DNA of 64,000 nucleotides, taken from contig JAGWOI010000004.1 in the NCBI GenBank assembly GCA_028870995.1, positions 17,578 through 81,577 of the forward strand, written 5' to 3'. The stretch's first letter is position 1, and each line of letters opens with the position of its first letter. The stretch is from Candidatus Omnitrophota bacterium. Lineage in GTDB: Bacteria; Omnitrophota; Gorgyraeia; Zapsychrales; Fredricksoniimonadaceae. The notes beneath the pieces are model-generated. The model saw nothing but the letters and a program-made list of their open reading frames with translations. It was not told the origin of the DNA and did not search any database. Shown here in pieces: positions 5,901-43,182 of the stretch. The translations under genes and the position numbers were made by a program.

Positions 5901-8900
5901 AGTCCCTTGAAGTCCTTCAGAAAAAGGAAGCGGAGGCGTTCCCTTCTGCCAGCCGGTTCAGCCTGACCGGCGGGGTCTTTATGCAAAACGGCAAACTGGT
6001 GGTCAGCGGCGGCGTCCAGGGCATGCTCAAAAACAGCATCAACGGCGGGCTCTCGTCCGGCAATGCCATCGGTTCCGCTGTCCCCCTGGTCTTTGACCTG
6101 GCCGGCAATATCATTGACGCCATCAGCGGCAAGGTGGTCAAGGAGACTGCTCTGGCCAAGAAAATGACGGAGATTGCCTACCACCATATGCAGGAAACCA
6201 TTATTCAGCAGTCCGTGGCAGGCCAGGATTTGTTGATTGATATCGGGGCGGCACGGCAGAAAATAGGGGAGCTTAAAAAATTACAACAGGATATGCGGCA
6301 GGCCAGGAGTGTCATGAAGGCACGCGAAGAAGCAGGCTTCAGTTTGAAAATCCAGCAGGACCAGCTCGATTACGAAATTCAAGATATCACCAACCAGATC
6401 GAGACCCTGGAAACACAACAGGCCGAATGGAAAACCCAGCTGGACGTTTTGATCAGCCGTACCAGGACCGTCCATTTTGACATGGACATTTCTCCGGTCT
6501 TGCCGTGGGGCAAGGGCTTTACGCCCATCGATGCGGCGACCAAGGAGGCCATGGCCAAGCAGCTTCTTGGTCCCGGCAGCCCGAACCCGCGCATGCAAGA
6601 GGTGACGGCAGCGGACCAGGCGGTGGATATGAGCATCAAGCTGCAGAATTTGGGAAGGCTGCCTTTTATTAATCTAGGCGGCGTTTTTATCAATAACGGC
6701 CATGGGCTTAACCCCTTGTATGATGTTTCGGAACCAGTTACGGGCGAACGCACCGGCAATCTGCAGCAGGGGGCCAATCCGGCGGGGCAGATTGAAATTC
6801 CTCTCATTGACACCGTTCAGCATACCAAGGAAGCTATTGTGGCCCTGGAAAAGCAAAAATCGCAATTGAATATCGATACGGCCAAAGCCGAGTTGGGCCG
6901 CCAGCTTGAGCAGGCCGTGGATGATATCAACCGATTAAGCGCCCAAATCCAACAAACCCAGGAGGCCTATCGGAATGCGGTGGCTGTCTGGGAGGCGAAG
7001 ATCCGGCGTCCTGATTTTTACCTGCCGTATCAGCTGGTGTCTGACCGTCTTGAAATTAATAAACTATGGCAGGAGTTGTGTAACCAAAAAGCGCAATATT
7101 TGAAGGCTGAAACTTCATTAAGGGAGTTGCGCGTCTGGGGCCAGGAAACTTCAAAGGTGCAAGCCGGCCCGATGGATGGACTTCCGGCAGCGGTTTCCGC
7201 CGCCGTGGCGGGAGATTTCAGTGTTGAGGCGCCTTCCTTAATAATACCGTCCTTGCCGTCGCTCAATTTAATGGCCTTCAGTCAGGGAGAGGATACGCTG
7301 GCCCCGGGCATCATCAATTATCACATAGGAGAGGATGTTTCGAGTGCCTGGGCGCTGATGCACGGCAATCCCTCGGGCGCTGATACGCCCCTGGATGCCT
7401 TGAAAAATATTTTGATCAAAGAGCCTAACACTTTTGTGCGTGCCGATGCTTTGAAGCATTTCCTGGCTGAGTATCAAGGGGACAGCCGGTTTTTGCCGGC
7501 GCTTAAAGACATAGTCGAGCGTTCAGCCCATCCGGACGTGGTCTGGGAATTGTTGAAATACATGAGCCAGCGCGAGGACCGCGATCCGCGTTTTCTCGTT
7601 GAGGTCATCGATGAAGGCGAGAACAGCCGCGATCATCTGCTTGTCCGCCTGGGCTTTCAGGCGCTCCGGGATGTTTTGACCATGTACCCGCAGGAGATGA
7701 AAAAATTGAGTCCTGCCGATTTTATAACTTCCGCTCATTCGCCGTATCCTCGGGCGACCATCACCGCGGCCAACAAGGTTTTTCTCACCTTCCTGGCCCA
7801 GGAGCCGGACGATTCCATCGCTGCCGAGCGCCTGGTGCAGAGCGATTTTTGGAGCACGGATGATTTAAAGGACATTTACAAAAAGTTGGAGACGGCCAAG
7901 GACGATCATCCCGGCAGTGCACCTCAAATCGAGGCCCTGGCCCAATTCATCCAGGCCGCTGATAAACGGAAGGCCGCGCTCGACAATATTGACCAGGTCT
8001 TTACCCCCGGGCCCTTTGGCGAGCACGGCGGTGCTGTCTTTCAACGGGACATTATTTCCTATATCCAGATCATGGACAATGCCAGGGAGAGCCAGCGCTT
8101 TCTGAACACCTCGCCGCAATGGGAGAAGATGGCAGCCTTCATCCATCCCAAGCTTTATGCCTGCACCTTAAGCGAAGTCCAACGCCCCGGCCCTGCCGCC
8201 GCTGCTGTCCCTGTGGACCCTGTTTATGATCTGATGCCTTCAACCGCACAGCACCCCGAGCTGGAATATTTTCAAAGTCTGGGGCTTAAGGAACAGGAAG
8301 GATATATTGAACAGTCCCAGGACATTTGCGAATTGAACAGGATCTTGGATCTGAATACGCCCCTGCGCACTGTTGTTTTGGACCGGTTAATGGCATCCAG
8401 CCAGGGGCGGGTGCTGGTGTTAAAAACCTACCTTGGGTCGGATGCCCCTGATCTTTTGGGCCTCATCGAATCACGTTCCTGGGACACGGTTCTGCTGGCC
8501 GACATCCCCAACATTGAGGATGCGGCTTCCAATAGAATCGTGCGTTCGGGGCTGGAGAAAATGTATGACCGTACCGGCCAGGAGAAGTATTTAAATCTAA
8601 GGCTGCTGACGTACTCCGATTTTGAATTGCCTGCCCTCGATGATCCGAGAGGCAAGCGTATCCGAGAGGCTGCCATCCGGCGTGCCGCCGCGATCCGGGC
8701 CCTTCAGGCGTATCAAAAGCATATGGAGGTGGAAGTCCTGCCTTGGGCCGGCTATTCCATCCAGGATGCCAGAACTAAGACCGAGATAGCCAACCTGCAG
8801 CGCATCTTTGTCGAAGAGCCCGACCCCGTCAAGGTGGATGAATATATCGACAGCCACACTGTCCTCTCCCGGCAAGTGCCGCGTAGGATTTTTGATCAGA

Positions 8901-11665
8901 TCAACATTTTCGACGGATCCGTCCACTCCATGTTCGATTATATCAGGGGGGCCAGGGCAAAATTCGTCAAGCGATTGGCGGCCAATGACCAAAGCATCCC
9001 GCGGCTTAATATCCCGCAGATGGCCTCCTTTCTTGGATTGAGCGCCTTTCTCTTCCTGACTTCTCTATATAAAAGGACCTACCGATTTTACCGCCGCAAC
9101 ATCCTGCATTCTGATGACCAGATCAAGGGGCTTATGTACGCCTTAAAAGGAGACAAGCTGGATAAAAATCTGGCCGTCAAATGGCTTAAGGCCCACCAGG
9201 AGAATCGCCTTGACCGCAAGGGGCAGATCATCGGGCAAGACCAAGGGGGGCAGGCTGCGGACGATTTCAAAACACTTTCCGTGAACCCGCCGGTCCAGGT
9301 TTACCTGCCTTCACGTGAAGCTTTCCAGACCTGGTATGTGCTTGTCAGTGATTGGAAGACGGCCCCCAAGGTTCCGCCGGAACGCCTCATGGCCGACCTT
9401 AACACCATTCTTAATAATGCCAAAGAGGTCTTGCGTAAAATGCCGTATGAGCCGGATTTGATGTACAGCGGTCACGCCTGGGAATCTTTGGACACGGACA
9501 CCTATCAAAAGACCTACTCTTATTTTATGGGCCTGGCCTTGGAAACTCTTAACGTGATGAACGTGCGGCTTAGCGGCCAAAAGATAGGAGAAAGTCAGAG
9601 GAGATGGATGCAAGCGGAAGCCGGCATCATGAACGATATGGTCAAGTATGTCAACAGGTACCTGCGGGTTTTAACCTACAGAGGAAACATCGAACGGGCC
9701 ATCAGCAAAAAATTCTCCTATCAGCACTGGACTGAGCGGAGCAAGTTGGCACCGCTGGTCCGATGGATTTTGACGGACAGCTACCTCTGGGGCCAATCGC
9801 AAAAGCGGCTTTTTAAAGAACTGCCCCTTTTATTGGATGAGGGCAACGCCTTGATGCCGGATTTTTACCAGGATAAAGACAGCATCATTGAAGATACGCG
9901 GATTGCCTTAAATACGGCGACCAAAAGGGGCGGCAGCCTGAATAACACCCAGGCCAGGGAAGACCGCCATAATTTCAGGCTGGGGGATTTTTGGGGCCGG
10001 GTGGTTTATTTGTCAGCGTTCGGGCTGGGGTTCGCCGGACTGGCGGGCATATTCATTGGGTACAATATGCCTTTTGTCGAATTATCGACGATTGCCTTTT
10101 TTGTGGTCTGGGTCAAAGTTTATCTCAGTTATTGGAGGCCGCATTTGGATTTGTTGAGGATGGAGTGGAACAAGCTGGCCCACAAGATACGGGGCGATTT
10201 AAAGGCCCAATTGGATCAAAAACTCGGGGATTTCACGGAAGGCCCCCGAAAGAAACAGGTGGTCTTTTTTGCGCGCAAGGAAAACCAGGAGCAAACCGCC
10301 GTCGAATTGGACACCAGCCATGCCCCTAATGTGGACATGATCGTGGTGGTGGTGTCCAACGCTAAAAGCACCGCGAACATCGAGAACTATGTCAAGGGCC
10401 TAAGGGGTCAATTGATCCGCAATGACATTCCGGTCATGGTCATTCCTTCGCGCTACCAGGGCAGCGGCAATGCCTATTTGAGCATGTTGTTGCGGGCCAG
10501 AGACAAGTTCCGGTCGCCGGCTTATAAGAATAAAAACAGATATCCTTATTTGAAGTCCTGGGACAAGTCCCGCAAACTGTTCATCTTCATCGGCAAAGAG
10601 ATCGACGGCATGGACGTCGAATATCCTTTGCTGGACTTGTCCCTCCAAACCGGCTACCGCCTGGCCCAAAAGGACCCGGATATGAACGGCAATGCCGTGG
10701 AAGGCGGGCATATCACCATTTATGCCAGGGACGCTTATTACGGCCCGACGCCGTATTTCCCCCAGCAGGGCATTACCTTTCTCACCGCCAGGGCCAACCG
10801 CGATGAATTAAAAGAACGGGGCTTCGTCAATACCAATGACAGGCACGACACTCTGTCCCCGGTTTCCGAAATCCTGGAGAAACTGGATATTGCCGCCCTG
10901 GAGAATGATAAGAGAAGCCGCAAGGGAAGGACCCTGGAATATTTGGAGGAGAAATTTAACCTGCAAAACCATGCCATCAAACAGTTCGATACTTTAAGCG
11001 GGATCGTGGATGTGGCGCCGGACGCAGAAGAATATTTGTTGAAAATTGCCGCTTATGTGGATGAGCACCAGTTGTGGAAGCAATGGAACAGGCATTTGGT
11101 AGGAGACCTTTTTGTCCCCACCTTGATGTGGATGAGCAATTTGGATGAGGAAGACAAGGAAGAAGAGGTGGAGCAGTACATTGACAAACGCAGCCGCTGG
11201 AGCGATGTCAACCCTAACGGCAATGGCCATAAGCAGGGTCATAGTCATAAGAACGGCAACGGTCATCATGAGATACAGGAGAAGCTGAGGCCGTTTTATA
11301 GCTTCATTAAAGGATTACATCCCCAGATAGAGGCCAGGGCTTTTTTACCTTATCCTCTCCTTACCGTGTCCATGCACATCGCGGGAAAGAAGTTCCAAGA
11401 GGAGATGGACCGGTTTAAGTCCATCGATCATGCGCAAATATCCCAGGCGCCGGTCCTTTCGGAGACGAGGATTGACTCCCGTCCCGGCGGTATCGATCTT
11501 TCCCAGACATCGGATAAAATTTTATTTCAAAAAAGCGATGCGGCCCGGGCAGGCGGTTCCTTTCTTGTTTCGCAGGTCCTTAAGTCCTTTAAGGGTTTTG
11601 ATTTCCAAGTCATTGAATACCGTCAGATTTCGAATCCGTTGAGTTCCCTGGAAGGCGGCCTTTAA
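2918..11665 (+). CDS. Giant (2915 aa) multidomain envelope protein. Regions in order: signal peptide, unknown N-domain, Pro/Ala linkers, HlyD/membrane-fusion-protein-like beta/coiled-coil module, long coiled coils, HEAT-like repeats, TM segments, C-terminal unknown domain, His/Asn/Gly-rich tail
   Basis: Single uninterrupted ORF of 8.7 kb. Start may be TTG at 2918 or ATG at 2927. N-terminal hydrophobic leader. MFP-like motifs: VRAPNSGIVISRAAY…, LRAPTDGPVQFLVHEGQQVAKGQIVAVVEN, VGDPVVVETPQGVRLPGKVTAVN. PA-rich linkers: TAPPAVPSVAAPAA; AVPTPPVVVSPLGAPTVVLPAPAA. Predicted TM helices near aa ~2380–2420. HEAT-like repeats around aa 1450–1700. Tail contains NGNGHKQGHSHKNGNGHHE. Confidence 0.7.
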   Translation: MLIMRRRLIILFLILTFSVETLGGDAARAWSQSQAENAVMLPPGTLMSISPVFSLPTLRGIAIDPHDPFKINFVVDKADQNDQIQGQVNLLVKYFLSFLTIPEEDLWVNLSPYEKGRIITPDFENTNAGRDMLVEDYTLKQLASSLTYPGSDLGKIFWQKIFRRARQEYGSTAIPLNTFNKVWVVPDRAVVYEGNGSAFIAESHLKVLVEEDYLSMRKHGQIVPKNDGTENLSSQIMRELIVPELEREVNEGKSFAPLRQMFNSLILAIWFKKRLRENLIDKVYVDQDKTLGIALNEKQVKERIYAQYLKAFKKGVYNFIQEDYDAASHQDVPRKYFSGGFSFTNAASCISYRPASQIEELPENQRRFKGDFSMFSIVLNPLGVSKAALLKADAAQTSSSGRINKLLYSFVFAVGVAAGGWMMMPVSPTAPPAVPSVAAPAATNTALPAAAVPIQVTTADKDGQIEFHNFSDDVVPIPVEDQLLAEDGGVISGLDPDKKDYKAGDVMFSLIDPQVKGRIEQLTKELAIRQEKLQALQKLFPQQASGEEVTAAGQAVDEISAELAHARQALITRVAVAPHDLRVKNMLVANDMSVAKGGELLTYFDKQRIQVNIQVPPSLNYFYAIKGLKINGRPVESMVSLDWSLDPLQKNAQLSMIMDVPSSIVTGQPAKLEFTFSAPDTDHQLLETVSGLDQTLAKVNRVEAYVLRAPTDGPVQFLVHEGQQVAKGQIVAVVENKNYIEEYQNTRLGLRSLDIQIGLGRDIDGTLLIKRDELDRLKEQRAVFLEKLKTLEQEIQLDYVRAPNSGIVISRAAYQSKVFKGQDELLRIGTGETIVGNINGPRDLILFPKDLDIKVGDPVVVETPQGVRLPGKVTAVNKSPFDAARDLSANQAVEVMAFDRQNILQPNLPVNIILPQQGQRQQVLVAWDTVAHENTAAVPTPPVVVSPLGAPTVVLPAPAAATLTSTPDFTNGVPLLDLAGIDRLVAGNELVSGAQSLEVLQKKEAEAFPSASRFSLTGGVFMQNGKLVVSGGVQGMLKNSINGGLSSGNAIGSAVPLVFDLAGNIIDAISGKVVKETALAKKMTEIAYHHMQETIIQQSVAGQDLLIDIGAARQKIGELKKLQQDMRQARSVMKAREEAGFSLKIQQDQLDYEIQDITNQIETLETQQAEWKTQLDVLISRTRTVHFDMDISPVLPWGKGFTPIDAATKEAMAKQLLGPGSPNPRMQEVTAADQAVDMSIKLQNLGRLPFINLGGVFINNGHGLNPLYDVSEPVTGERTGNLQQGANPAGQIEIPLIDTVQHTKEAIVALEKQKSQLNIDTAKAELGRQLEQAVDDINRLSAQIQQTQEAYRNAVAVWEAKIRRPDFYLPYQLVSDRLEINKLWQELCNQKAQYLKAETSLRELRVWGQETSKVQAGPMDGLPAAVSAAVAGDFSVEAPSLIIPSLPSLNLMAFSQGEDTLAPGIINYHIGEDVSSAWALMHGNPSGADTPLDALKNILIKEPNTFVRADALKHFLAEYQGDSRFLPALKDIVERSAHPDVVWELLKYMSQREDRDPRFLVEVIDEGENSRDHLLVRLGFQALRDVLTMYPQEMKKLSPADFITSAHSPYPRATITAANKVFLTFLAQEPDDSIAAERLVQSDFWSTDDLKDIYKKLETAKDDHPGSAPQIEALAQFIQAADKRKAALDNIDQVFTPGPFGEHGGAVFQRDIISYIQIMDNARESQRFLNTSPQWEKMAAFIHPKLYACTLSEVQRPGPAAAAVPVDPVYDLMPSTAQHPELEYFQSLGLKEQEGYIEQSQDICELNRILDLNTPLRTVVLDRLMASSQGRVLVLKTYLGSDAPDLLGLIESRSWDTVLLADIPNIEDAASNRIVRSGLEKMYDRTGQEKYLNLRLLTYSDFELPALDDPRGKRIREAAIRRAAAIRALQAYQKHMEVEVLPWAGYSIQDARTKTEIANLQRIFVEEPDPVKVDEYIDSHTVLSRQVPRRIFDQINIFDGSVHSMFDYIRGARAKFVKRLAANDQSIPRLNIPQMASFLGLSAFLFLTSLYKRTYRFYRRNILHSDDQIKGLMYALKGDKLDKNLAVKWLKAHQENRLDRKGQIIGQDQGGQAADDFKTLSVNPPVQVYLPSREAFQTWYVLVSDWKTAPKVPPERLMADLNTILNNAKEVLRKMPYEPDLMYSGHAWESLDTDTYQKTYSYFMGLALETLNVMNVRLSGQKIGESQRRWMQAEAGIMNDMVKYVNRYLRVLTYRGNIERAISKKFSYQHWTERSKLAPLVRWILTDSYLWGQSQKRLFKELPLLLDEGNALMPDFYQDKDSIIEDTRIALNTATKRGGSLNNTQAREDRHNFRLGDFWGRVVYLSAFGLGFAGLAGIFIGYNMPFVELSTIAFFVVWVKVYLSYWRPHLDLLRMEWNKLAHKIRGDLKAQLDQKLGDFTEGPRKKQVVFFARKENQEQTAVELDTSHAPNVDMIVVVVSNAKSTANIENYVKGLRGQLIRNDIPVMVIPSRYQGSGNAYLSMLLRARDKFRSPAYKNKNRYPYLKSWDKSRKLFIFIGKEIDGMDVEYPLLDLSLQTGYRLAQKDPDMNGNAVEGGHITIYARDAYYGPTPYFPQQGITFLTARANRDELKERGFVNTNDRHDTLSPVSEILEKLDIAALENDKRSRKGRTLEYLEEKFNLQNHAIKQFDTLSGIVDVAPDAEEYLLKIAAYVDEHQLWKQWNRHLVGDLFVPTLMWMSNLDEEDKEEEVEQYIDKRSRWSDVNPNGNGHKQGHSHKNGNGHHEIQEKLRPFYSFIKGLHPQIEARAFLPYPLLTVSMHIAGKKFQEEMDRFKSIDHAQISQAPVLSETRIDSRPGGIDLSQTSDKILFQKSDAARAGGSFLVSQVLKSFKGFDFQVIEYRQISNPLSSLEGGL

Positions 11666-30361: not shown

Positions 30362-30897
30362 ATTTACCCAATACCCTGACCCTTTCACGCATTGTTTTGG
30401 CGGCCGTGCTGGTCTTGCTTTTGCACGAGCGTTCCTTGACCGGCAATATCTGGGCGGTCATTGTCTTTGTGATCGCCTCATTGACGGATTTCTTTGACGG
30501 CCACCTGGCCAAGACCAGGGGTGTCATCAGCGACTTCGGCAAGATCATGGACCCTATCGCCGACAAGGTGCTGATGTTGTCCGTATTTGCGGTCCTGGCC
30601 CATCTGGGCCAGATCGCCGCCTGGATGTTCATCGTGATTGCCGTGCGCGAAGTGGGAGTTACTCTCTACAGGCTCCAAGCCATGCGTCAGGGCTTGGTAT
30701 TGCCTGCCGAGAAGGCCGGTAAAATGAAGACCGTGGCCCAAATGATCGCGGTTTCGTCCTTGCTGTTATATCTCGTGGCCAGGCAGTTTGAAGGTGTCTT
30801 GAACTGGTGGGCTCAAATCAATTACATTTTGATGCTGGCAGCCGTTGTATTAACTGTTTATTCAGGCATAGAGTGCTTGCGCCGCAAGAAGATATGA
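30358..30897 (+). CDS. pgsA: CDP-diacylglycerol--glycerol-3-phosphate 3-phosphatidyltransferase
   Basis: CDP-alcohol phosphatidyltransferase motif D-x2-DG-x2-AR…G-x3-D-x3-D (DFFDGHLAKTRGVISDFGKIMDPIADKV). Confidence 0.85.
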   Translation: MNLPNTLTLSRIVLAAVLVLLLHERSLTGNIWAVIVFVIASLTDFFDGHLAKTRGVISDFGKIMDPIADKVLMLSVFAVLAHLGQIAAWMFIVIAVREVGVTLYRLQAMRQGLVLPAEKAGKMKTVAQMIAVSSLLLYLVARQFEGVLNWWAQINYILMLAAVVLTVYSGIECLRRKKI

Positions 30898-35135: not shown

Positions 35136-35554
35136 GACGTCGCACCCTGGCGCGGGAACACGCCTTGAAAATCCTTTACCAGTTCGACATCACCAAGCGT
35201 CCGGTGGACGCGGTGGTTGATTCTTATTGGAAGGCGGAAGAGACCAAGGACGGGGAGATCATCACCTATGCCAACCTTTTGGTCCGCGGCGTCAATGGCC
35301 ATATTCAGGACATCGACCACAAGATTTCCGATTATGCCACCAATTGGCAGATCAAGCGCATGGCGATCATTGACCGCAATATCATGCGCATCGGTTTGTA
35401 CGAACTGCAGCACACCCAGGACATTCCCCCGAAGGTGGCCATCAATGAAGCGGTGGAACTGGCCAAAAAATACGGTGACCTTGAATCAAGCAAGTTCGTC
35501 AACGGCATCCTGGACAAGATCCACAAAAAAGAGATCGTCGAACGGCAGAATTAA
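35132..35554 (+). CDS. nusB: Transcription antitermination factor NusB
   Basis: ATGA overlap with ribH. NusB-like helical sequence (…[16 protein letters not shown]…). Confidence 0.85.
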
Positions 35555-35563
35555 TTCCCTTCG

Positions 35564-36406
35564 TTGCAAATTCTGGAGGACGGCATGCCCGGCAACGCAG
35601 ATCTTCATATCCACACGTATTTCTCCGACAGCACTGCATCGCCGCAGGAGGTGGCCGATGAGGCGAAGGCTGCCGGACTTTCCTGCATCGCCATCACCGA
35701 CCACGACATCATTGAAGGCGTAGCACCCGCCATTGAGGCGGCCGGGCCCCATGGGATCGAAGTTGTCCCGGGCATCGAACTTTCGTCGGAGTTCGAAAAC
35801 TGCGATATCCATATCCTCGGTTATTTCATCGATTATCAGAAGGGGCCGATGCTGGAAAGGATCGACACCTTTTTGAATGCCCGCATGGACCGCATGAAGC
35901 GGATGATCATGAATCTAAAGGGCGTCGGCGTCAATAATATCGAATTCGAAGAGGTCTGCGCCCTGACGCATTCCAGGGCGGTGGGCCGCTCCCATCTGGC
36001 CATGCTGCTGCAGCAAAAGGGCTGGGTCAATAACATCAAGGCCGCCTTTGAAAAATACCTGGGCCCCGGCTGTCCCGGCTATGCGCCCAAATACAAGCAA
36101 ACTCCTTTTGAAGCCATCGAGCTTATCCGCCGATCCGGCGGGGTGGCGGTGATGGCCCATCCGATGCTCACCCAAAAAGACGAATTGATCCCGCGCTTTG
36201 TAGCGGCAGGATTAAAAGGCCTGGAGGTCTATTATCCCAATACCATGGATGCGGTGGTGCAATTTTATGAACGCATCGCCCGGAAAAACGGTCTCATCGC
36301 TACCGGCGGTTCGGATGCGCACGGCAAGGCCAAGCCTTATACTTATATCGGCAAAAGAACCATACCAATGGAAGTTGTTGAGCAATTGCGGCAGGCCAAG
36401 GGATGA
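35564..36406 (+). CDS. PHP-family (polymerase/histidinol-phosphatase) metal-dependent phosphoesterase
   Basis: PHP motifs: DLHIHTYFSD; AITDHD; HILGYF; MAHP; GGSDAHG. Embedded in the rib operon between nusB and ribD. Confidence 0.8.
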   Translation: MQILEDGMPGNADLHIHTYFSDSTASPQEVADEAKAAGLSCIAITDHDIIEGVAPAIEAAGPHGIEVVPGIELSSEFENCDIHILGYFIDYQKGPMLERIDTFLNARMDRMKRMIMNLKGVGVNNIEFEEVCALTHSRAVGRSHLAMLLQQKGWVNNIKAAFEKYLGPGCPGYAPKYKQTPFEAIELIRRSGGVAVMAHPMLTQKDELIPRFVAAGLKGLEVYYPNTMDAVVQFYERIARKNGLIATGGSDAHGKAKPYTYIGKRTIPMEVVEQLRQAKG

Positions 36407-37476
36407 ATAATGATATCATCTATATGAACCGGGCTTGGGAATTGGCCCTGCAAGGTTGGGGCAGGACATCGCCCAATCCCATGGTGGGCGCGGTGATTGT
36501 CAAGTCGGGCAGGATCATTGCCGAAGGCTATCATCATTATTGTGGCGCAGACCATGCCGAAGTGGATGCCTTTAAAAAAGCCGGTACAGCGGCACGCGGG
36601 GCAGCGCTGTATGTGACCTTGGAGCCTTGCGGCCATTGGGGACGCACGCCGCCGTGTACTGAGGCCATTGTGAAGGCCGGCATCCGCAAGGTCGTGGTCG
36701 GCGCGCTTGATCCCAATAAACTTAATAACGGCCAATCCCTGAAGTTCCTGAGACGCAACGGGATCAAGGTGGAGCAGGGCCTGTTATCGGAAGAATTGAC
36801 GCGCCTCAACGAAGCGTTCAACTGCTGGATCACCAAGAAGCGGCCCATGGTCACGGTCAAGATCGCCCAAACTCTCGACGGCAAGATCGCCACCCTTAAC
36901 GGGCGCTCCCAATGGATCACCGCAGCCTTTGCGCGTAATTATGCGCATCGCCTGAGATTCGGTTTTGATGCCATCATGGTGGGCATCAATACCGTTCTTA
37001 AAGACGGCCCGCGGTTAAACACCGTGCCGGCCAAACCCATCAAGAAAATTATTTTGGATACCCATGGCCGTTTCCCCGCGCGCGCCAGGTTATGCGAAGG
37101 CACCCGCCCGCAGGACGTACTGGTCTTTACGGGAAAAGCCGCTATGAAGCGGGCCGACGTGCAGGTGATCGAGGCCCCCTTATATGAAGGGAAAATTGAT
37201 TTAAAATGGGTCCTGTCATTTTTGGGGAAAATGGACATTACCAGCGTGCTTATTGAGGGCGGCGGGTTAATGGCAGGTGAGGCGCTCAGGCGTAATCTGG
37301 CCGATAAAATGATGATTTATATGGCGCCCAAGATCATGGGGGAGGGGCTTGGCAGTGTGCGCGGCTTTGTCCCCAAGGCCTTGGGAGAAATAGCCTATCT
37401 AAAAGAGATGAGTATTGATAAAATAGGGGAAGATATTTTAATCCAGGGTTATCCGCATGTTTACAGGCATCGTTGA
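36403..37476 (+). CDS. ribD: Bifunctional diaminohydroxyphosphoribosylaminopyrimidine deaminase / 5-amino-6-(5-phosphoribosylamino)uracil reductase
   Basis: CMP/dCMP deaminase zinc motif (HAEV…PCGHWGRTPPC) plus a C-terminal reductase domain. Confidence 0.9.
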   Translation: MNNDIIYMNRAWELALQGWGRTSPNPMVGAVIVKSGRIIAEGYHHYCGADHAEVDAFKKAGTAARGAALYVTLEPCGHWGRTPPCTEAIVKAGIRKVVVGALDPNKLNNGQSLKFLRRNGIKVEQGLLSEELTRLNEAFNCWITKKRPMVTVKIAQTLDGKIATLNGRSQWITAAFARNYAHRLRFGFDAIMVGINTVLKDGPRLNTVPAKPIKKIILDTHGRFPARARLCEGTRPQDVLVFTGKAAMKRADVQVIEAPLYEGKIDLKWVLSFLGKMDITSVLIEGGGLMAGEALRRNLADKMMIYMAPKIMGEGLGSVRGFVPKALGEIAYLKEMSIDKIGEDILIQGYPHVYRHR

Positions 37477-38044
37477 ACATCAAGGCATAGTCAAAAAGAT
37501 CGAGACCAAAAAGAACCTGCTGGTTTTTAGCATTGACCTGGGGCCGCTGGCCCCCAAGGTCCGTCTGGGCGACAGTGTGGCCATTGACGGGGTCTGCCTG
37601 ACCGCAAGGTCCAAAAAAGCCAAGACGGCTGCCTTTGACCTTATGAAGGAGACCATTGAGAAAACGGCGCTGCGGGATCTAAAGGCAGGGGACTCGGTGA
37701 ACCTGGAGCTGGCCTTGCGGGCCGACCAGCGCTTGGGCGGCCATTTTGTGACGGGCCATGTGGATGAGGTGGCTGTCATTAAGCGTATTGATGAGGAACT
37801 CAACTGGGTGGCCGTGACCCTTAGCGTCAGCCGGGCCAACCGTAAATATATCGTGCCCAAGGGGTCGGTGACGGTCAACGGCGTGAGTCTCACCGTGGGC
37901 TGGGTCGGTAAGGACCGCTTTCAAGTGTACCTGATCCCTTACACGCTGCAAGTCACCAATTTGGGCGAAAAAAAAGCAGGGGATTGCGTCAATATCGAGA
38001 CGGATATTTTAGCCAAGTATCTTTTTAACAAAAAGGGGGGTTAA
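37457..38044 (+). CDS. ribE: Riboflavin synthase alpha subunit
   Basis: MFTGIVEHQG… N-terminus and an internally duplicated lumazine-binding repeat. Confidence 0.9.
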   Translation: MFTGIVEHQGIVKKIETKKNLLVFSIDLGPLAPKVRLGDSVAIDGVCLTARSKKAKTAAFDLMKETIEKTALRDLKAGDSVNLELALRADQRLGGHFVTGHVDEVAVIKRIDEELNWVAVTLSVSRANRKYIVPKGSVTVNGVSLTVGWVGKDRFQVYLIPYTLQVTNLGEKKAGDCVNIETDILAKYLFNKKGG

Positions 38045-38046
38045 CT

Positions 38047-38490
38047 ATGCGCTTGGAAATCGACGATATACAAAAGATCATCCCGCACCGTTTTCCTTTC
38101 CTGCTCATCGACCGCGTGTTGGAATGCAAGCCCAATGAAAAGCTGGTGGCGGTCAAGAATGTTTCCATCAACGAGCAGTTCTTCGTCGGGCATTTCCCCC
38201 ATGAGCAGGTGATGCCCGGTGTCTTGATCGTCGAAGCCATGGCCCAGGCCGGATGCATTTACGTGTACTACAGCAAAAACCTGCAGGGTAAACACCTGAC
38301 CTATTACCTGGCCAAGACCGAGGCGCGTTTCCTTCATCCGGTTGTTCCCGGGGACCAGCTCAAGATCGAAATCACCACCGTCAAACTGCTGCCCAAGGCG
38401 GGCTTTGTCAGGGCCAAGGCGTTTGTGGGCGAGAAACTCGCGGCCGAAGCCGACATAGGTTTTGGCATCAAGGACATCCGGGATAAGTAA
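38047..38490 (+). CDS. fabZ: 3-hydroxyacyl-[ACP] dehydratase FabZ
   Basis: Hotdog fold with FabZ motifs (IQKIIPHRFPFLLIDRV…; HFP..PVMPGVLIVEAMAQ). Confidence 0.9.
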   Translation: MRLEIDDIQKIIPHRFPFLLIDRVLECKPNEKLVAVKNVSINEQFFVGHFPHEQVMPGVLIVEAMAQAGCIYVYYSKNLQGKHLTYYLAKTEARFLHPVVPGDQLKIEITTVKLLPKAGFVRAKAFVGEKLAAEADIGFGIKDIRDK

Positions 38491-38505
38491 TCCGTAGGGC
38501 TGGCA

Positions 38506-39021
38506 TTGATCGTGATCCAAACCAACCGAAAATATACCTTTGCTTTCGGCGAACGCAAGCTGGTCATCAATAAGCTTTCCCATGAATCGGAATTCCAGCC
38601 CTTTGCCAAGGCGCTGGTTTTCGCGCTGTTTCATAAGCAATACCGTTCCCTGCGCCTGGAGCCCCAGCTGCCCGAAGAGCGCTTCCAGCCGGACCTGTGC
38701 GCCTTTGACTTCGACGGCAGCACCATGCTGTTCTGGTCGGAGGTGGGCAATGTCTCCCTGGCCAAAATCGAAAAGCTGTTCAAGAAATACCGCAAAGCCC
38801 ATTTCGTTTTTGTCAAAGAAGAGCAGGACGTACCGGCATTTGACAAGCATCTGCACAAACTGTCCAAGGACATGCTCAGTCTTCCTTTGATCGACATCGT
38901 GGTCTATCCGCCGCATTTTCAGGAATGGAACGTCAGCCCCGAAGGCGATGTTTTTATCCGTAAAGAAGATGTGCAGATCATCCGCTGGCACCAGCCCAAA
39001 GGGCACAAGGAACATTTTTAA
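38506..39021 (+). CDS. YaeQ-family protein
   Basis: Similar in length and motifs to E. coli YaeQ (ALVFALFH…; PDLCAFDFDGSTMLFWSEVG). Confidence 0.55.
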   Translation: MIVIQTNRKYTFAFGERKLVINKLSHESEFQPFAKALVFALFHKQYRSLRLEPQLPEERFQPDLCAFDFDGSTMLFWSEVGNVSLAKIEKLFKKYRKAHFVFVKEEQDVPAFDKHLHKLSKDMLSLPLIDIVVYPPHFQEWNVSPEGDVFIRKEDVQIIRWHQPKGHKEHF

Positions 39022-39099
39022 ATAAAGGTCATAGTGATTTTATTTGGCCTGGCCTTCTTGACATGGGGTATACTTGAATCAAGGAAAGGAGGGCGGTCC

Positions 39100-39252
39100 A
39101 TGAAAAAAACCGTTATCATACTTTTCGTATTCATGGTTTTGGCAGTGCAAAGCGGCTTTGCCCTGGTAGTGGTAGGCGGCGGCAGTTCGGGCAGTCCCGG
39201 TAACTCCGGGAATCCGCATCATCACCATCATCACCACCACCCTAAAAAGTGA
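39100..39252 (+). CDS. Small secreted poly-histidine peptide (signal peptide + Gly/Ser linker + His8)
   Basis: Strong ribosome-binding site (AAGGAAAGGAGGG) before ATG 39100. Encodes MKKTVIILFVFMVLAVQSGFALVVVGGGSSGSPGNSGNPHHHHHHHHPKK. Followed by a terminator hairpin. Confidence 0.55.
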   Translation: MKKTVIILFVFMVLAVQSGFALVVVGGGSSGSPGNSGNPHHHHHHHHPKK

Positions 39253-39265
39253 GAGATGTGCAGGG

Positions 39266-39297
39266 AAAAAGGGAATCCGAAAGGGTTCCCTTTTTTT
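39266..39297 (+). terminator. Rho-independent terminator after the poly-His peptide gene
   Basis: AAAAAGGGAA-TCCGAAAGGG-TTCCC followed by a T7 run. Confidence 0.7.
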
Positions 39298-39315
39298 ATT
39301 GCGCTTTCACGGCTG

Positions 39316-39344
39316 TTGACGCCGGCTCGCGGGACTGATAGAAT
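39316..39344 (+). promoter_or_regulatory. Sigma70-type promoter for tRNA-Pro (TTGACG-17-TAGAAT)
   Basis: Hexamers with a 17-bp spacer, about 30 nt upstream of the tRNA 5' end. Confidence 0.55.
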
Positions 39345-39373
39345 AGCGCCCTTAAAAGTATTGTTGTGATTTC

Positions 39374-39449
39374 GGGAAGTAGCGCAGTTGGCTAGCGCGC
39401 AACGTTCGGGACGTTGAGGTCGCGGGTTCAAGTCCCGCCTTCCCGACCA
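39374..39449 (+). tRNA. tRNA-Pro (anticodon CGG)
   Basis: Cloverleaf: acceptor GGGAAGT/ACTTCCC(G); D-arm GCGC/GCGC; anticodon stem CAACG/CGTTG with loop TTCGGGA; T-arm GCGGG-TTCAAGT-CCCGC; encoded CCA end. Confidence 0.85.
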
Positions 39450-39477
39450 TCTATAGCAGCATCTTTACGTCCAGTTT

Positions 39478-39747
39478 ATGGTTCGAGCCCATATTCACTT
39501 CTTCGGCACCGTCCAAGGTGTCGGCTTCCGCTACACCACGTTAAATCTTGCCAAGCCTTTGCATCTCACCGGTTGGGTGCGCAATCTCTCCGATGGCAGT
39601 GTGGAGGCCGTGGCCGAAGGTTCCCGGGAAAAGATTGAAGAGCTCGTTGCCCTATTAAAACAGGAATTTGGCCAGTTTATCCGGGATATCAAGATCGAAT
39701 GGCCGCCGGCCAGGGGTGAATTTGCCGAGTTCAAGATCGTTCATTAG
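39478..39747 (+). CDS. acyP: Acylphosphatase
   Basis: About 89 aa with acylphosphatase signatures (VQGVGFR…; [12 protein letters not shown]). Confidence 0.85.
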
Positions 39748-39750
39748 ATT

Positions 39751-41748
39751 ATGAATCAAACGGAAGCTAGAAAAGAGATCCGGTATCTGACCAAGGCTAT
39801 CGAGGAGCACAACCGCCGTTATTATGTGCTCCATGATCCTGCCATTTCCGATGAGGAATATGACCGCCTGCTTCAAAGGCTCGTGCAGCTGGAAGAGGAG
39901 TTCCCTCAGTTGAGGTCGCCGGATTCGCCGACTCACCGGGTCGGCGCCAAGGTGGAGGGGAATCTGCCCACGGTCAGGCATTCCCAGGGCATGCTTTCCT
40001 TGGATAATACCTATTCCTTGGATGAGCTTAAAGCCTGGTATCAGCGCGTGGTCAAGGGATTGGGCGGGCAGGAGCCGGTCATGACCGCCGAGGTCAAAAT
40101 TGACGGCCTAAGCTGTGCCTTGACCTATAAAGAAGGCCGCCTGGACCTGGCCGCCACCCGCGGGGACGGTACGACCGGTGAGGACGTCACGCATAATGCC
40201 AGGACCATCCACGACATTCCTTTGGCATTGAAATCATCCGCCCCTGAACTTTTGGAAATCAGGGGAGAAGTTTACATGGATAAAAAAGATTTTGCCAGGA
40301 TTAACCAGCAGCGCAAGGACAAAGGCGAGATTTTGTTCGCCAACCCCCGCAACGCCGCGGCCGGCTCGTTGAAATTGCTGGATGCCCGGCTGACCGCCCA
40401 GCGGCACTTGAAATTCTTTGTGCATTCGCCGGGCCGTCTTGAAAAGGAAAACCCTCCGTCCAGCCAATGGGGGTTTTTGAAGCGTTCTGAAGAATACGGT
40501 TTTGTCATCAATCCGCACATCCATCTTTGCCATAAGCTGGATGAGGTCATTCAATTTTGTCATGAGATGGAAAACACGCGTAATGAGATCGGCTTTGAAG
40601 TTGACGGGGTGGTGGTGAAGGTCGATGATTTCAAACAGCAGGCAATACTTGGGCGTACCCTTAAAAGCCCGCGCTGGGCCGTGGCCTTCAAATTTCAGGC
40701 CCACCAGGCCACCACAACGGTTAAAGATATTGTCGTTCAGGTCGGCCGCACCGGCGTTTTGACGCCCGTGGCGGAATTAGAGCCGGTGGCCTGCGCCGGT
40801 GTGGTCATCCAACGTGCCACCCTGCATAATTTCGATGAGATCAGACGTTTAGGCGTCAACGCCGGAGACCGGATCCTGCTGGAACGCGCCGGGGACGTGA
40901 TCCCTAAAGTCGTCAAGGTCACCCAAAAGCATGCCCAAGGCGATTTCGTGCCGCCTAAAACCTGCCCCTCATGCGGCGCCCGGATCCAGAAGGTCAAGGA
41001 AGCGGACGTGGCTTACCGCTGCTTGAATCCGTCCTGTCCCAAGCAACTGGAACGCCTTCTTATCCATTTCGCCTCGCGTCGGGCCATGGATATCGAAGGC
41101 CTGGGTGAATCCCTGGTGGATCAGCTGCTTAAGAAGGGAATGATCAAAGACCTGGCCGATATTTATTCGCTAAAGAAGGAGCGGCTGCTTGACTTGGAAT
41201 TATTTGCCGAAAAGAAGGCCGAGAATGTGCTCAAGGCCATCGATGAAAGCAAAACCCGGCCTTTATCCAAATTCCTTTATGCGTTAGGCATACCCAACGT
41301 CGGTGTCAAGGCTGCCGCAAATTTAGCTGGGCATTTCGGTTCCTTGGATGCTATTATAAAGAGTTCAATCTCACAATTGCAGGCCATCGCGGAAGTGGGG
41401 CCGGTGATGGCGGAATCAGTGGTTGAGTATTTCAAGCAGCCGCAGGTCAAAAACCTTTTGACCAAATTCCAGGCAGCGGGCCTGCATTTGACCGGAGCCA
41501 AGCGTCAGCCTTCAGGCCATCGCCTGGATGGCAAGAAATTCGTCTTTACCGGCGAGCTGGACGGGATGACCCGTGAGGCAGCCGGCGGGTTAGTGGAAGA
41601 ACAGGGCGGCAAGGTGGTCGACAGTATCAGCAAAAGTTTGGATTACCTGGTGGTTGGCCGGGCGCCGGGATCAAAGCTGGCCACGGCAAGGCAGTTGGGC
41701 ATACCCATATTAAATCAAAAGGAATTTAAGGAGATGCTGCATGGTTAA
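39751..41748 (+). CDS. ligA: NAD-dependent DNA ligase LigA
   Basis: Adenylation motif KxDG (EVKIDGLS), OB fold, Zn finger (CPSCG…C..C), HhH and a C-terminal BRCT domain. Confidence 0.92.
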   Translation: MNQTEARKEIRYLTKAIEEHNRRYYVLHDPAISDEEYDRLLQRLVQLEEEFPQLRSPDSPTHRVGAKVEGNLPTVRHSQGMLSLDNTYSLDELKAWYQRVVKGLGGQEPVMTAEVKIDGLSCALTYKEGRLDLAATRGDGTTGEDVTHNARTIHDIPLALKSSAPELLEIRGEVYMDKKDFARINQQRKDKGEILFANPRNAAAGSLKLLDARLTAQRHLKFFVHSPGRLEKENPPSSQWGFLKRSEEYGFVINPHIHLCHKLDEVIQFCHEMENTRNEIGFEVDGVVVKVDDFKQQAILGRTLKSPRWAVAFKFQAHQATTTVKDIVVQVGRTGVLTPVAELEPVACAGVVIQRATLHNFDEIRRLGVNAGDRILLERAGDVIPKVVKVTQKHAQGDFVPPKTCPSCGARIQKVKEADVAYRCLNPSCPKQLERLLIHFASRRAMDIEGLGESLVDQLLKKGMIKDLADIYSLKKERLLDLELFAEKKAENVLKAIDESKTRPLSKFLYALGIPNVGVKAAANLAGHFGSLDAIIKSSISQLQAIAEVGPVMAESVVEYFKQPQVKNLLTKFQAAGLHLTGAKRQPSGHRLDGKKFVFTGELDGMTREAAGGLVEEQGGKVVDSISKSLDYLVVGRAPGSKLATARQLGIPILNQKEFKEMLHG

Positions 41749-42298
41749 TTTTAATCCGGGCAAAAAATTGGTGGTTCTGGCGGCCGGTCTTCTGGTCATG
41801 GCCCTTTCTTTGAGCTCTTGCGATACGCTTAAAGAGAAATTCATTCGCAAGCCCAAGCATGAGGTGCAGAGTTTCACGCCGGTGCTTGAACCGGAAGAAT
41901 ATCCTTCACCCGAATTGGACCCGAAACATAATTACCAGCAGCATTACGACCTCATCAAGGCCTGGTACAGGGACCTGTGGTCTGCCATCGATGAAAAGGA
42001 CACTTCGAAGTATGTGCACTATATTATCAGGGAGGTCGACCATCACATCGATCAGATGAAGGCGCTGGTGGACGAGCCGACCCGGCTCAAATTGATCAAA
42101 TTGTCCTCGTATTTGGATTATTACCAAAGTTCTTTGGAGTACTCCTGGCAGGTGCGTAATGTTTCGCGGATCCAAAGCGATTTGCGCGGTTTTGACCGTT
42201 ATTTGCGGGACAACCTGCGCATAGACAGGATCCAAGGCCATTTTATTAAAATAATGCCTGCTGCGATGCCCGCAAAGCCGGCCATCAGGACAGAATGA
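41741..42298 (+). CDS. Lipoprotein, hypothetical
   Basis: Lipobox LSLSSC after a hydrophobic leader. 185 aa. Confidence 0.5.
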   Translation: MVNFNPGKKLVVLAAGLLVMALSLSSCDTLKEKFIRKPKHEVQSFTPVLEPEEYPSPELDPKHNYQQHYDLIKAWYRDLWSAIDEKDTSKYVHYIIREVDHHIDQMKALVDEPTRLKLIKLSSYLDYYQSSLEYSWQVRNVSRIQSDLRGFDRYLRDNLRIDRIQGHFIKIMPAAMPAKPAIRTE

Positions 42299-43182
42299 AG
42301 GAATTTATCGATGATTTCCTGGACTACATTACCGTCGAGCGCGGGCTGTCCAAGAACACCGGCCTGGCCTACCGCCGGGATTTAACCAAATACATCGGGT
42401 ATCTGTCGCAAAAGGGGATCGGCAGCGCCGACGCAGTCAGGCGGGAGCATGTTTCCGATTTCATGTTCGATCTCAAGAAGCACGGCATGTCCCCGTCCAG
42501 CATCTGCCGGCATCTGGCGGCGGTCAAAATGTTCCATCGTTTCCTGTTGCGGGAAAACCTTTCCAAGGAAGACCCCACGACACTGGTGGACACTCCGAAA
42601 CTTTGGAAGAGGATACCCGCGGTATTGACCCAGGCCGAGATCGAGTCCATGATCGCGGCAGCGGCCGGCCGCAAGACCCAGCAGGTCAGGGATGCGGCCA
42701 TCCTGGAAATTTTCTATGCCAGCGGTTTGCGCGTCTCGGAATTAGCGGATTTGAAAACGACCAGCATCAATTTCGAGGTCGGCTTTGTGCGGGCAGTGGG
42801 CAAGGGCAGCAAGGAGCGGATCATCCCTTTGGGGCAGAAGGCGGCCCAAGCCGTGCAAAAATATTTGGAGAAAGCCAGGCCGCAGCTTTTAAAGAACCAG
42901 GCGAATGATTATCTGTTCTTGAGCAAGCTGGGCAAAAGGATCAGCCGGGTCAGCTTATGGTCATTGATCCAGTCATATGCCCGTAAGGCCAATATCAAAA
43001 AACCGATCAAGCCGCATACCTTGCGGCACACTTTCGCGACCCATTTGCTGGAACATGGCGCGGATCTGCGCTCGGTTCAGGAAATGCTGGGGCATGCGGA
43101 CATTTCCACGACCCAGATTTACACGCACGTGGACAAGGAACGCTTGAGAAGCGTGCATAAACAATTTCACCCGCGGGGTTAA
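42295..43182 (+). CDS. xerD: Tyrosine recombinase XerC/XerD
   Basis: C-terminal catalytic region with the R…HxxR…Y signature (HTLRHTFATHLLEHGADLRSVQEMLGHADISTTQIYTHV). Confidence 0.85.
   Translation: MKEFIDDFLDYITVERGLSKNTGLAYRRDLTKYIGYLSQKGIGSADAVRREHVSDFMFDLKKHGMSPSSICRHLAAVKMFHRFLLRENLSKEDPTTLVDTPKLWKRIPAVLTQAEIESMIAAAAGRKTQQVRDAAILEIFYASGLRVSELADLKTTSINFEVGFVRAVGKGSKERIIPLGQKAAQAVQKYLEKARPQLLKNQANDYLFLSKLGKRISRVSLWSLIQSYARKANIKKPIKPHTLRHTFATHLLEHGADLRSVQEMLGHADISTTQIYTHVDKERLRSVHKQFHPRG

Follow-up and report, generated by a model that had tools for sequence, protein, structure and literature searches.

Can a bacterial gene consist of little more than an export signal, a flexible linker and a histidine tag? 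The question is raised by a small open reading frame (ORF) of 50 codons in a 64,000-nucleotide stretch of DNA from a Candidatus Omnitrophota bacterium (the window; contig JAGWOI010000004.1, positions 17,578 to 81,577), in which a signal-peptide-like N-terminus is followed by a low-complexity linker and eight consecutive histidines (His8). The feature is confirmed as real and well formed; it sits in the gap between a YaeQ-family gene (yaeQ) and the promoter of a tRNA-Pro(CGG) gene, outside any other gene, and it is absent from all relatives compared. The small ORF is probably a young orphan gene, and it is considered rather likely to be translated. The reading favoured here, tentatively and with a little less than even confidence, is that of a young lineage-specific mini-gene whose product is exported or membrane-anchored, with His8 outside the cytoplasm binding divalent metals.

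A 50-codon frame ending in eight histidines

The original prediction for this DNA described the product as a Sec-type N-terminus, a linker and His8. This anatomy holds; the translation of 39100–39252 on the + strand is reproduced exactly, and the linker is made up of Gly, Ser, Asn and Pro (Table 1). The position that had been given for the His run, 39221–39244, is 4 nucleotides (nt) off, the true one being 39217–39240. A homopolymer artefact had also been feared; with CAT and CAC codons mixed, the run is a trinucleotide or 9-nt repeat and no homopolymer, and Tandem Repeats Finder describes it as 2.2 copies of CATCATCAC, that is, a 9-nt unit duplicated and followed by CACCAC. Besides His8, the six frames of the window hold a single run of at least four histidines, an H4, and ORFs with at least five consecutive histidines are missing from 62 related loci (347 kb). 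The start is placed at the ATG at 39100 and not at an in-frame GTG at 39034, because the GTG is without a good Shine-Dalgarno (SD) sequence and the strong SD of the ATG would fall within the longer product; the corresponding 72-amino-acid (aa) version (39034–39252, +), with an extra N-terminal hydrophobic stretch (MILFGLAFLTWGILESRKGGRS...), was rejected on this ground.

His8 resembles an engineered tag, and an assembly or sequencing error in the repeat, or contamination with a His-tagged laboratory construct, could in principle produce it; this is regarded as barely credible, since the codons are mixed, the frame is embedded without a break among Omnitrophota housekeeping genes, the flanking signal peptide and terminator are native and unlike those of a vector, and blastn of 39022–39320 against the PLSDB plasmids gives no match. 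The segment is, moreover, identical on a second NCBI contig, JAGWKV010000024.1 (L001; GCA_028865175.1), which carries the same 8.1-kb stretch; identity is 100% over 35156–42397, and all 84 mismatches lie at the contig ends. This second copy is weak independent support for the length of the run, as the two assemblies may share reads, and its complete identity makes it impossible to derive a ratio of non-synonymous to synonymous substitution rates (dN/dS) from the pair. A gene caller predicts the same 50-aa product on this contig; for YaeQ and for LigA, the identical protein appears on two contigs, of which the longer has 110,887 bp.

The SD had been called very strong, and it is: the AGGAGG core stands 7 nt before the ATG. 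An SD with an ATG is by itself poor evidence for a gene, as the pattern GGAGG-N4-10-ATG occurs 19 times in the window and heads short, probably spurious ORFs (<65 aa) in 10 of these cases. A crude signal-peptide filter, which applies rules for the n-, h- and c-regions to ATG-started frames of at least 40 aa, passes 10 of 1000 frames, the small ORF included; eight of the ten stand at the starts of long ORFs and represent seven genes (one with two alternative starts), presumably for real secreted proteins, and the pass rate among non-gene frames is approximately 0.2%. The only other short ORF to pass is a 57-aa frame at 30724 (+; start MKTVAQMIAVSSLLLYLVARQ...), which partly overlaps the start of a PgpA-family gene in another frame and is probably spurious.

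A strong intrinsic terminator begins 14 nt after the TGA (13 nt lie between). Its 13-nt arms (AAAAAGGGAATCC, 39266–39278, and GGGTTCCCTTTTT, 39283–39295) enclose a GAAA loop, and the hairpin has a folding free energy of −20.9 kcal/mol (z −4.5), which none of 200 shuffled sequences equals; an outer helix covers 39253–39309, and a 66-nt version of the structure reaches −31.3 kcal/mol (z −6.1). Given its A-tract and T-tract, the terminator may potentially work in both directions. A consensus terminator scan missed this hairpin, which folding shows plainly, probably because pairing between the A-tract and the T-tract lengthens the stem that is counted; by scan, the interval from yaeQ to the ORF (38400–39100) holds no + strand terminator. 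The hairpin had been described as dedicated to the small ORF: its strength stands, its dedication does not, since with no terminator between yaeQ and the ORF it may end the entire ribD-ribE-fabZ-yaeQ unit. The separate sigma-70-like promoter claimed for the adjacent tRNA gene is present, 28 nt upstream of tRNA-Pro. In the favoured reading the small ORF would be transcribed either together with the ribD-ribE-fabZ-yaeQ unit, as its final cistron, or from its own weak promoter, and would be translated from the AGGAGG/ATG site; transcription would stop at the hairpin, which would thereby end the rib-fabZ-yaeQ unit and shield the tRNA promoter. Within the coding region, pairing of the Val/Gly codons with the His codons does not reach significance (z −1.6).

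A His codon run near the end of a short ORF, with an intrinsic terminator behind it, also recalls a hisL-like attenuator, in which ribosomes short of His-tRNA would stall on the eight His codons, alter the folding of the RNA and so cause read-through of the terminator into the downstream genes. The likeness, a short ORF with seven to eight consecutive His codons, extends to the peptide, as HisL of Escherichia coli reportedly ends in H7-Pro-Asp. This explanation is largely refuted and is now thought very improbable: the hairpin follows the stop after only 13 nt, folds of 39200–39300 show no pairing that could act as an anti-terminator, there is no Rfam match to His_leader or any other cis-regulatory family at E ≤ 1, and the genes downstream are tRNA-Pro, acyP and ligA, with no his genes among them. 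The tRNA gene is served by a separate promoter, which is conserved in relatives without the ORF, and a 50-aa leader with an export signal would be atypical and longer than the classical leaders.

Table 1. Features of the yaeQ to tRNA-Pro(CGG) interval, with positions in the window.
Feature	Position	Strand	Description	Basis
YaeQ-family gene, 171 aa	38506..39021	+	homologues named YaeQ family, PF07152 on many	
Lineage-specific segment, ~290 bp	39024..39312	+	contains small ORF and terminator	blastn against L028
Shine-Dalgarno region	39081..39093	+	AAGGAAAGGAGGG, purine-rich; AGGAGG core 39087–39092, 7-nt spacer to ATG	
Small ORF, 50 codons and TGA	39100..39252	+	encodes MKKTVIILFVFMVLAVQSGFALVVVGGGSSGSPGNSGNPHHHHHHHHPKK	
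Predicted Sec signal peptide, residues 1–21	39100..39162	+	n-region MKK, h-region TVIILFVFMVLAV, c-region QSGFA	heuristic filter and Kyte-Doolittle windows
LVVV and low-complexity Gly/Ser/Asn/Pro linker, residues 22–39	39163..39216	+		
His8	39217..39240	+	CAT CAT CAC CAT CAT CAC CAC CAC, then Pro-Lys-Lys and stop	
Intrinsic terminator	39266..39297	+	T7 run	inverted repeat and folding
Sigma-70-type promoter of tRNA-Pro	39316..39344	+	TTGACG-17-TAGAAT, TG-extended	10/12 consensus positions
tRNA-Pro(CGG)	39373..39449	+		

A lineage-specific segment: gene or chance

The small ORF lies in a segment that is specific to this lineage. The only relative to keep yaeQ beside tRNA-Pro is locus L028, a JGI contig on which yaeQ has 81% nucleotide identity and fabZ lies upstream. 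In L028 (around 1627–1660) the −35 box of the tRNA promoter starts 6 nt past the yaeQ stop, and blastn homology between the window and this locus ends at 39023 and restarts at the tRNA (39366); the ~290 bp that hold the ORF and its terminator are therefore lineage-specific. The segment 39024–39312 would represent either an insertion in the lineage of the window or a loss in L028, alternatives that two taxa cannot polarise, and no insertion scars are recognisable around it. Two exact direct repeats are present in the region: AGATGTGCAG at 38967–38976 (3' end of yaeQ) and 39254–39263 (directly past the ORF stop), and GGGAATCCG at 39208–39216 (the Gly-Asn-Pro codons before the His run) and 39271–39279 (5' arm of the terminator). 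They were considered as insertion scars or as partners in regulatory pairing and were discarded, each being at approximately chance level in 550 nt by our estimate. As a separate observation, the yaeQ of L028 (1119–1629) has a frameshift near 1297–1330 that divides it into two ORFs with an overlap, which points to a pseudogene or an assembly error.

A series of results weighs against the reading of a mini-gene with an exported or anchored, metal-binding product. The small ORF is absent from L028, and upstream of tRNA-Pro it is likewise absent from L021, L024, L025 and L026; a His-rich small ORF within 1 kb downstream of yaeQ is found in none of 54 yaeQ-anchored loci (19 from GTDB and 35 from metagenomes). 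Purifying selection cannot be shown for a frame that relatives lack. A word-index search of 5.8 billion protein clusters gives no candidate; phmmer against 1.84 billion representatives gives two matches, both spurious (a repetitive 2015-aa sequence, and an unrelated 419-aa protein of which only the signal peptide and a Gly-rich start are aligned); a scan of JGI metagenomes with six 8-aa patterns yields 600 pattern matches, none of them confirmed; and no family matches the peptide in Pfam (E ≤ 1) or NCBIfam (E ≤ 10). The codon-usage log-odds of the ORF is +1.3, a value exceeded by 98% of true 50-codon chunks and attained by 10% of false ones; of the other five frames over the ORF, four score far worse (−17.9 to −41), which speaks for the gene, and one antisense frame scores higher (+7.8), and the test is weak because of the odd amino-acid composition. 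A consensus scan finds no canonical promoter directly 5' of the ORF. Metal-related neighbours had been proposed as a check, and within 15 kb there is no metal transporter, metallochaperone or metal-dependent enzyme cluster.

Further searches agree with this picture: local blastn and tblastn against 27 loci, without low-complexity filtering, recover only the ORF itself and L001, and the exact peptide is absent from a collection of 15 billion proteins that includes the NCBI proteins, while the neighbouring yaeQ has two GenBank accessions. The expectation that such a small gene would be missed by annotation fits, as the peptide appears to be unannotated in GenBank and was called only by the collection's own gene caller. 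The original prediction had offered lack of conservation, together with lack of a translation signal, as grounds for abandoning its proposal, and the ORF is indeed found in no relative and no database searched. A periplasmic metal chelator or metallochaperone thus finds no support in conservation, in the syntenic L028 locus or in the neighbouring genes; by that prediction's own standard the functional idea is half refuted, and it stands as chemically reasonable without backing from conservation or context.

The same results feed a serious, if on balance somewhat unlikely, alternative, which is that the frame is a functionless chance ORF or proto-gene, either untranslated or translated without a selected function. 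A ~290-bp insert would here combine by accident a run of purines that resembles an SD, an ATG, a stretch of hydrophobic residues and a (CAY)8 made by slippage, and the hairpin would serve to end the upstream operon and insulate the tRNA promoter. Conservation is wholly lacking in all searches, the L028 site has no ORF, the codon score is ambiguous and is bettered by an antisense frame, and roughly half of the SD-like sites followed by an ATG in the window head short, probably spurious ORFs; in addition, the His run is built like a recent 9-nt duplication, and the region 5' of tRNA-Pro varies in every relative. Chance is, however, an improbable source of four gene-like features together, namely an AGGAGG at ideal spacing, a full n/h/c pattern, a repeat in the His frame and a stop just before a terminator.

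Predicted signal peptide, possible membrane anchor and the histidine tail

The N-terminus displays the elements of a Sec signal peptide. The n-region is positively charged (Lys2 and Lys3) with no acidic residue within the first six, and the h-region TVIILFVFMVLAV is an uninterrupted hydrophobic stretch of 13 residues with an 11-residue Kyte-Doolittle maximum of 3.50. The c-region, QSGFA before Leu, places Gly at −3 and Ala at −1, with cleavage between VQS and G as an alternative by the same heuristic. There is no cysteine in the peptide and thus no Cys at +1 of a lipobox, so that a lipoprotein is excluded. Hydrophobicity carries on past the c-region through LVVV, and residues 5–25 have a Kyte-Doolittle mean of 2.81 over 21 residues; since the hydrophobic stretch spans these residues, an uncleaved anchor with its N-terminus inside and its C-terminus outside is as plausible as cleavage. 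Of the proposed cleaved, secreted peptide, the signal-like N-terminus is retained, and free secretion is one of two equally plausible outcomes. The positive-inside rule favours an external C-terminus, given the N-terminal Lys-Lys and the 15 charge-free residues past the hydrophobic stretch.

In the favoured reading the MKK sequence, the 13-residue hydrophobic core and QSGFA would direct the product to the Sec translocon, after which two outcomes are envisaged. Signal peptidase I may cut after Ala21 and free the 29-residue LVVVGGGSSGSPGNSGNPHHHHHHHHPKK into the periplasm, or residues 5–25 may be kept as an N-in/C-out anchor; either way, the flexible Gly/Ser/Asn/Pro tether would display an unstructured His8 outside the cytoplasm. 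Through its imidazoles, like every poly-His tract, His8 would coordinate Ni(II), Zn(II), Cu(II) or Co(II) there and would form a small sink or buffer for metals in the periplasm or at the membrane, which may benefit the cell. Such binding is expected from the chemistry of poly-His and not from homology, and it would match the measurements made on viper poly-His/poly-Gly peptides. A bolder reading, an unmodified, ribosomally made "natural His-tag" that acts as a newly arisen, Sec-exported metal scavenger or buffer of ~29 residues in the periplasm or on the surface of an ultra-small Omnitrophota cell, is thought quite improbable; the same low confidence attaches to its corollary, a protein metallophore in minimal form that arose de novo in variable intergenic DNA beside a tRNA integration hot spot.

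The length of residues 5–25, sufficient to span a membrane uncleaved, also fits a small membrane protein with a role other than metal buffering, either a single-pass regulator of a larger membrane protein or a membrane-active peptide like the type I toxins. Its His tail would be of no consequence in itself or would serve as a switch that responds to pH or charge. Among small membrane regulators and toxin-like peptides, orphans that are short, hydrophobic and encoded between genes are typical. MntS provides a precedent, as a small regulator of metal homeostasis that can derive from a signal peptide (bioRxiv 10.1101/2023.06.02.543501). The features of a type I toxin are partly present, in that the product is a hydrophobic peptide of <60 aa; however, a consensus scan of 39100–39320, which cannot exclude an antisense RNA, finds no minus-strand promoter in or after the ORF, no toxin family matches in Pfam or NCBIfam, and no partner gene is evident. 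A 5' untranslated region hairpin that could mask the SD by pairing it with CCUUCUU is not significant (z −1.6). A membrane protein of this kind is judged unlikely.

Several known systems resemble the proposed mini-gene product in part. In SmbP of Nitrosomonas europaea, the histidines are reportedly spread through helical repeats with no single run. SmbP is a periplasmic protein of ~10 kDa with a Sec signal peptide and many histidines, which binds Ni(II), Cu(II), Zn(II) and Fe(III) and is retained on immobilized metal affinity chromatography (IMAC) (PMC7137794). The small ORF product is similarly small and His-rich with a Sec-type signal, and its function would be closest to that of SmbP-type exported binders; however, SmbP is folded and is not similar to it in sequence, and in its mature form the small ORF product would be an unstructured peptide of only ~29 residues. 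The nearest match in form, with an uninterrupted His run and a flexible Gly-rich tract, is seen in viper venom peptides of the poly-His/poly-Gly (pHpG) kind, which are reportedly cut from larger venom precursors. These secreted peptides (EDDHHHHHHHHHGVGGGGGGGGGG) have 24–30 residues, in which 6–12 His in a row are joined with a tract rich in Gly and with Pro or Ser as spacer; a role as Zn/Cu chelating buffers is proposed for them, and poly-His peptides are established ligands of Cu(II) and Zn(II) (PMC9472272). The pHpG peptides are eukaryotic, have the reverse order (His first, Gly last) and share no common ancestry with the small ORF, and for their proposed target, the venom metalloproteinases, no counterpart is shown here.

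Unstructured His-rich tracts act as metal stores or relays in Hpn, UreE, HypB, SlyD and CooJ. The His-rich tail of mycobacterial GroEL1 is a documented Cu(II) ligand (PMC10170517). In these cases the tract is cytoplasmic and is carried on a folded domain, with genes in or near urease, hydrogenase or CO-dehydrogenase clusters; compared with such cytoplasmic Ni/Zn chaperones, the tract of the small ORF is stand-alone, would be exported and has housekeeping neighbours. CopQ, CzcJ, MmrQ and MmmQ of Cupriavidus and Ralstonia are small proteins with a signal sequence and a narrow lineage that are linked to metal stress and contain RDXXTDG repeated three to four times; several of their genes are part of metal-resistance loci and have been shown to be induced by metal (PMC2864759). 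The product considered here is likewise small and lineage-restricted with a signal-type N-terminus, but RDXXTDG is absent from its 50 residues, and none of these four proteins has a His run. [quoted passage not shown] On that description they differ from the small ORF, whose peptide has no Cys and whose neighbours include no MNIO (DUF692) or partner genes. No family model matches, and the product belongs to none of the families compared.

If made and exported, a product of signal peptide, linker and His8 would be the simplest imaginable bacterial metal-binding product, and its gene would provide a clean case of a very young gene gaining an export signal and a chemically active tail. In that event the case would be of interest for research on small proteins, on the de novo birth of genes and on how metals are handled in the periplasm, and it would suggest caution when IMAC is applied to environmental samples. 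As the ORF occurs in a single uncultured lineage, with neither conservation nor a metal-related context and with its expression argued from signals in the DNA, it opens no long-standing question and permits no generalisation at present.

Neighbouring genes and the tRNA-Pro(CGG) integration hot spot

The neighbours were named from their Pfam domains, and a few ORFs are without a Pfam match. Within 15 kb the upstream genes are rpsO, pnp, ftsK, rodZ, a radical-SAM/TRAM gene, pgpA, a BaxI-family gene, cinA, ribBA, ribH, nusB, a PHP-domain gene, ribD, ribE, fabZ and yaeQ, the last being the final long gene of the ribD-ribE-fabZ-yaeQ run; downstream, they are tRNA-Pro, acyP, ligA, a 185-aa gene, xerD, PolyA_pol, rbfA, a DHH-family gene, truB, ribF, mraZ, rsmH, a PBP gene, two Mur-ligase genes and Glycos_transf_4. 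Most of the functionally assignable genes in this range are housekeeping genes. The relatives of YaeQ are all from metagenome-assembled genomes of Candidatus Omnitrophota; in the two closest GTDB relatives unrelated genes follow yaeQ, and none of the 54 yaeQ-anchored loci has the tRNA-Pro(CGG) of the window beside it.

The downstream side is more widely kept, the block tRNA-Pro(CGG)-acyP-ligA-~180 aa-xerD-PolyA_pol-rbfA-DHH-truB being found in L021, L024, L025 and L026 (LigA identity 72–75%); among the ligA-anchored loci, tRNA-Pro precedes acyP-ligA in all but L027. The tRNA promoter is retained in relatives without the small ORF, with TTGAC, TG.TA.AAT and CGCCCTTA invariant in an alignment of four genomes, and the sequence 5' of the promoter and block is different in every relative. 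In this Omnitrophota clade, integration has a hot spot at the tRNA-Pro(CGG) gene upstream of acyP-ligA: L021 (1589–3716) holds an AT-rich island with a gene for a 559-aa membrane protein between the tRNA and a repeat of the tRNA 3' end, tyrosine integrase genes and HTH_17 excisionase-like genes adjoin tRNA-Pro in L023 (2510–3730) and L026 (2122–3689), and in L028 (1793–2650) the tRNA is interrupted past its 5' half by foreign genes, one of them with DUF5678.

A conserved element of ~90 nt lies between the promoter and tRNA-Pro in L021 (1497–1588), L025 (~3480–3571) and L028 (~1690–1792). It reads GGAAGGCAAACTTTCTGGAAG...GGAAGTTTGCAC.TCTCCCGAA...TTTTCTGAATGTAATTCTGATTA and contains a hairpin of GGCAAACTT and AAGTTTGC; it has no Rfam match and is absent in the window and in L024, where the tRNA closely trails the promoter. 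The element may be what is left of a tRNA-like sequence, or else a small RNA that is co-transcribed.

Elsewhere in the window, an ORF of 2,915 aa (2918–11665, +) with a signal-peptide-like N-terminus (MRRRLIILFLILTFSVETLG) would encode a giant secreted or surface protein. Over positions 1–64000 there are 33 ORFs with 250 aa or more, 32 of them on the + strand, and the cumulative GC skew climbs steadily; this strong co-orientation and steady skew indicate that the window lies inside one replichore.

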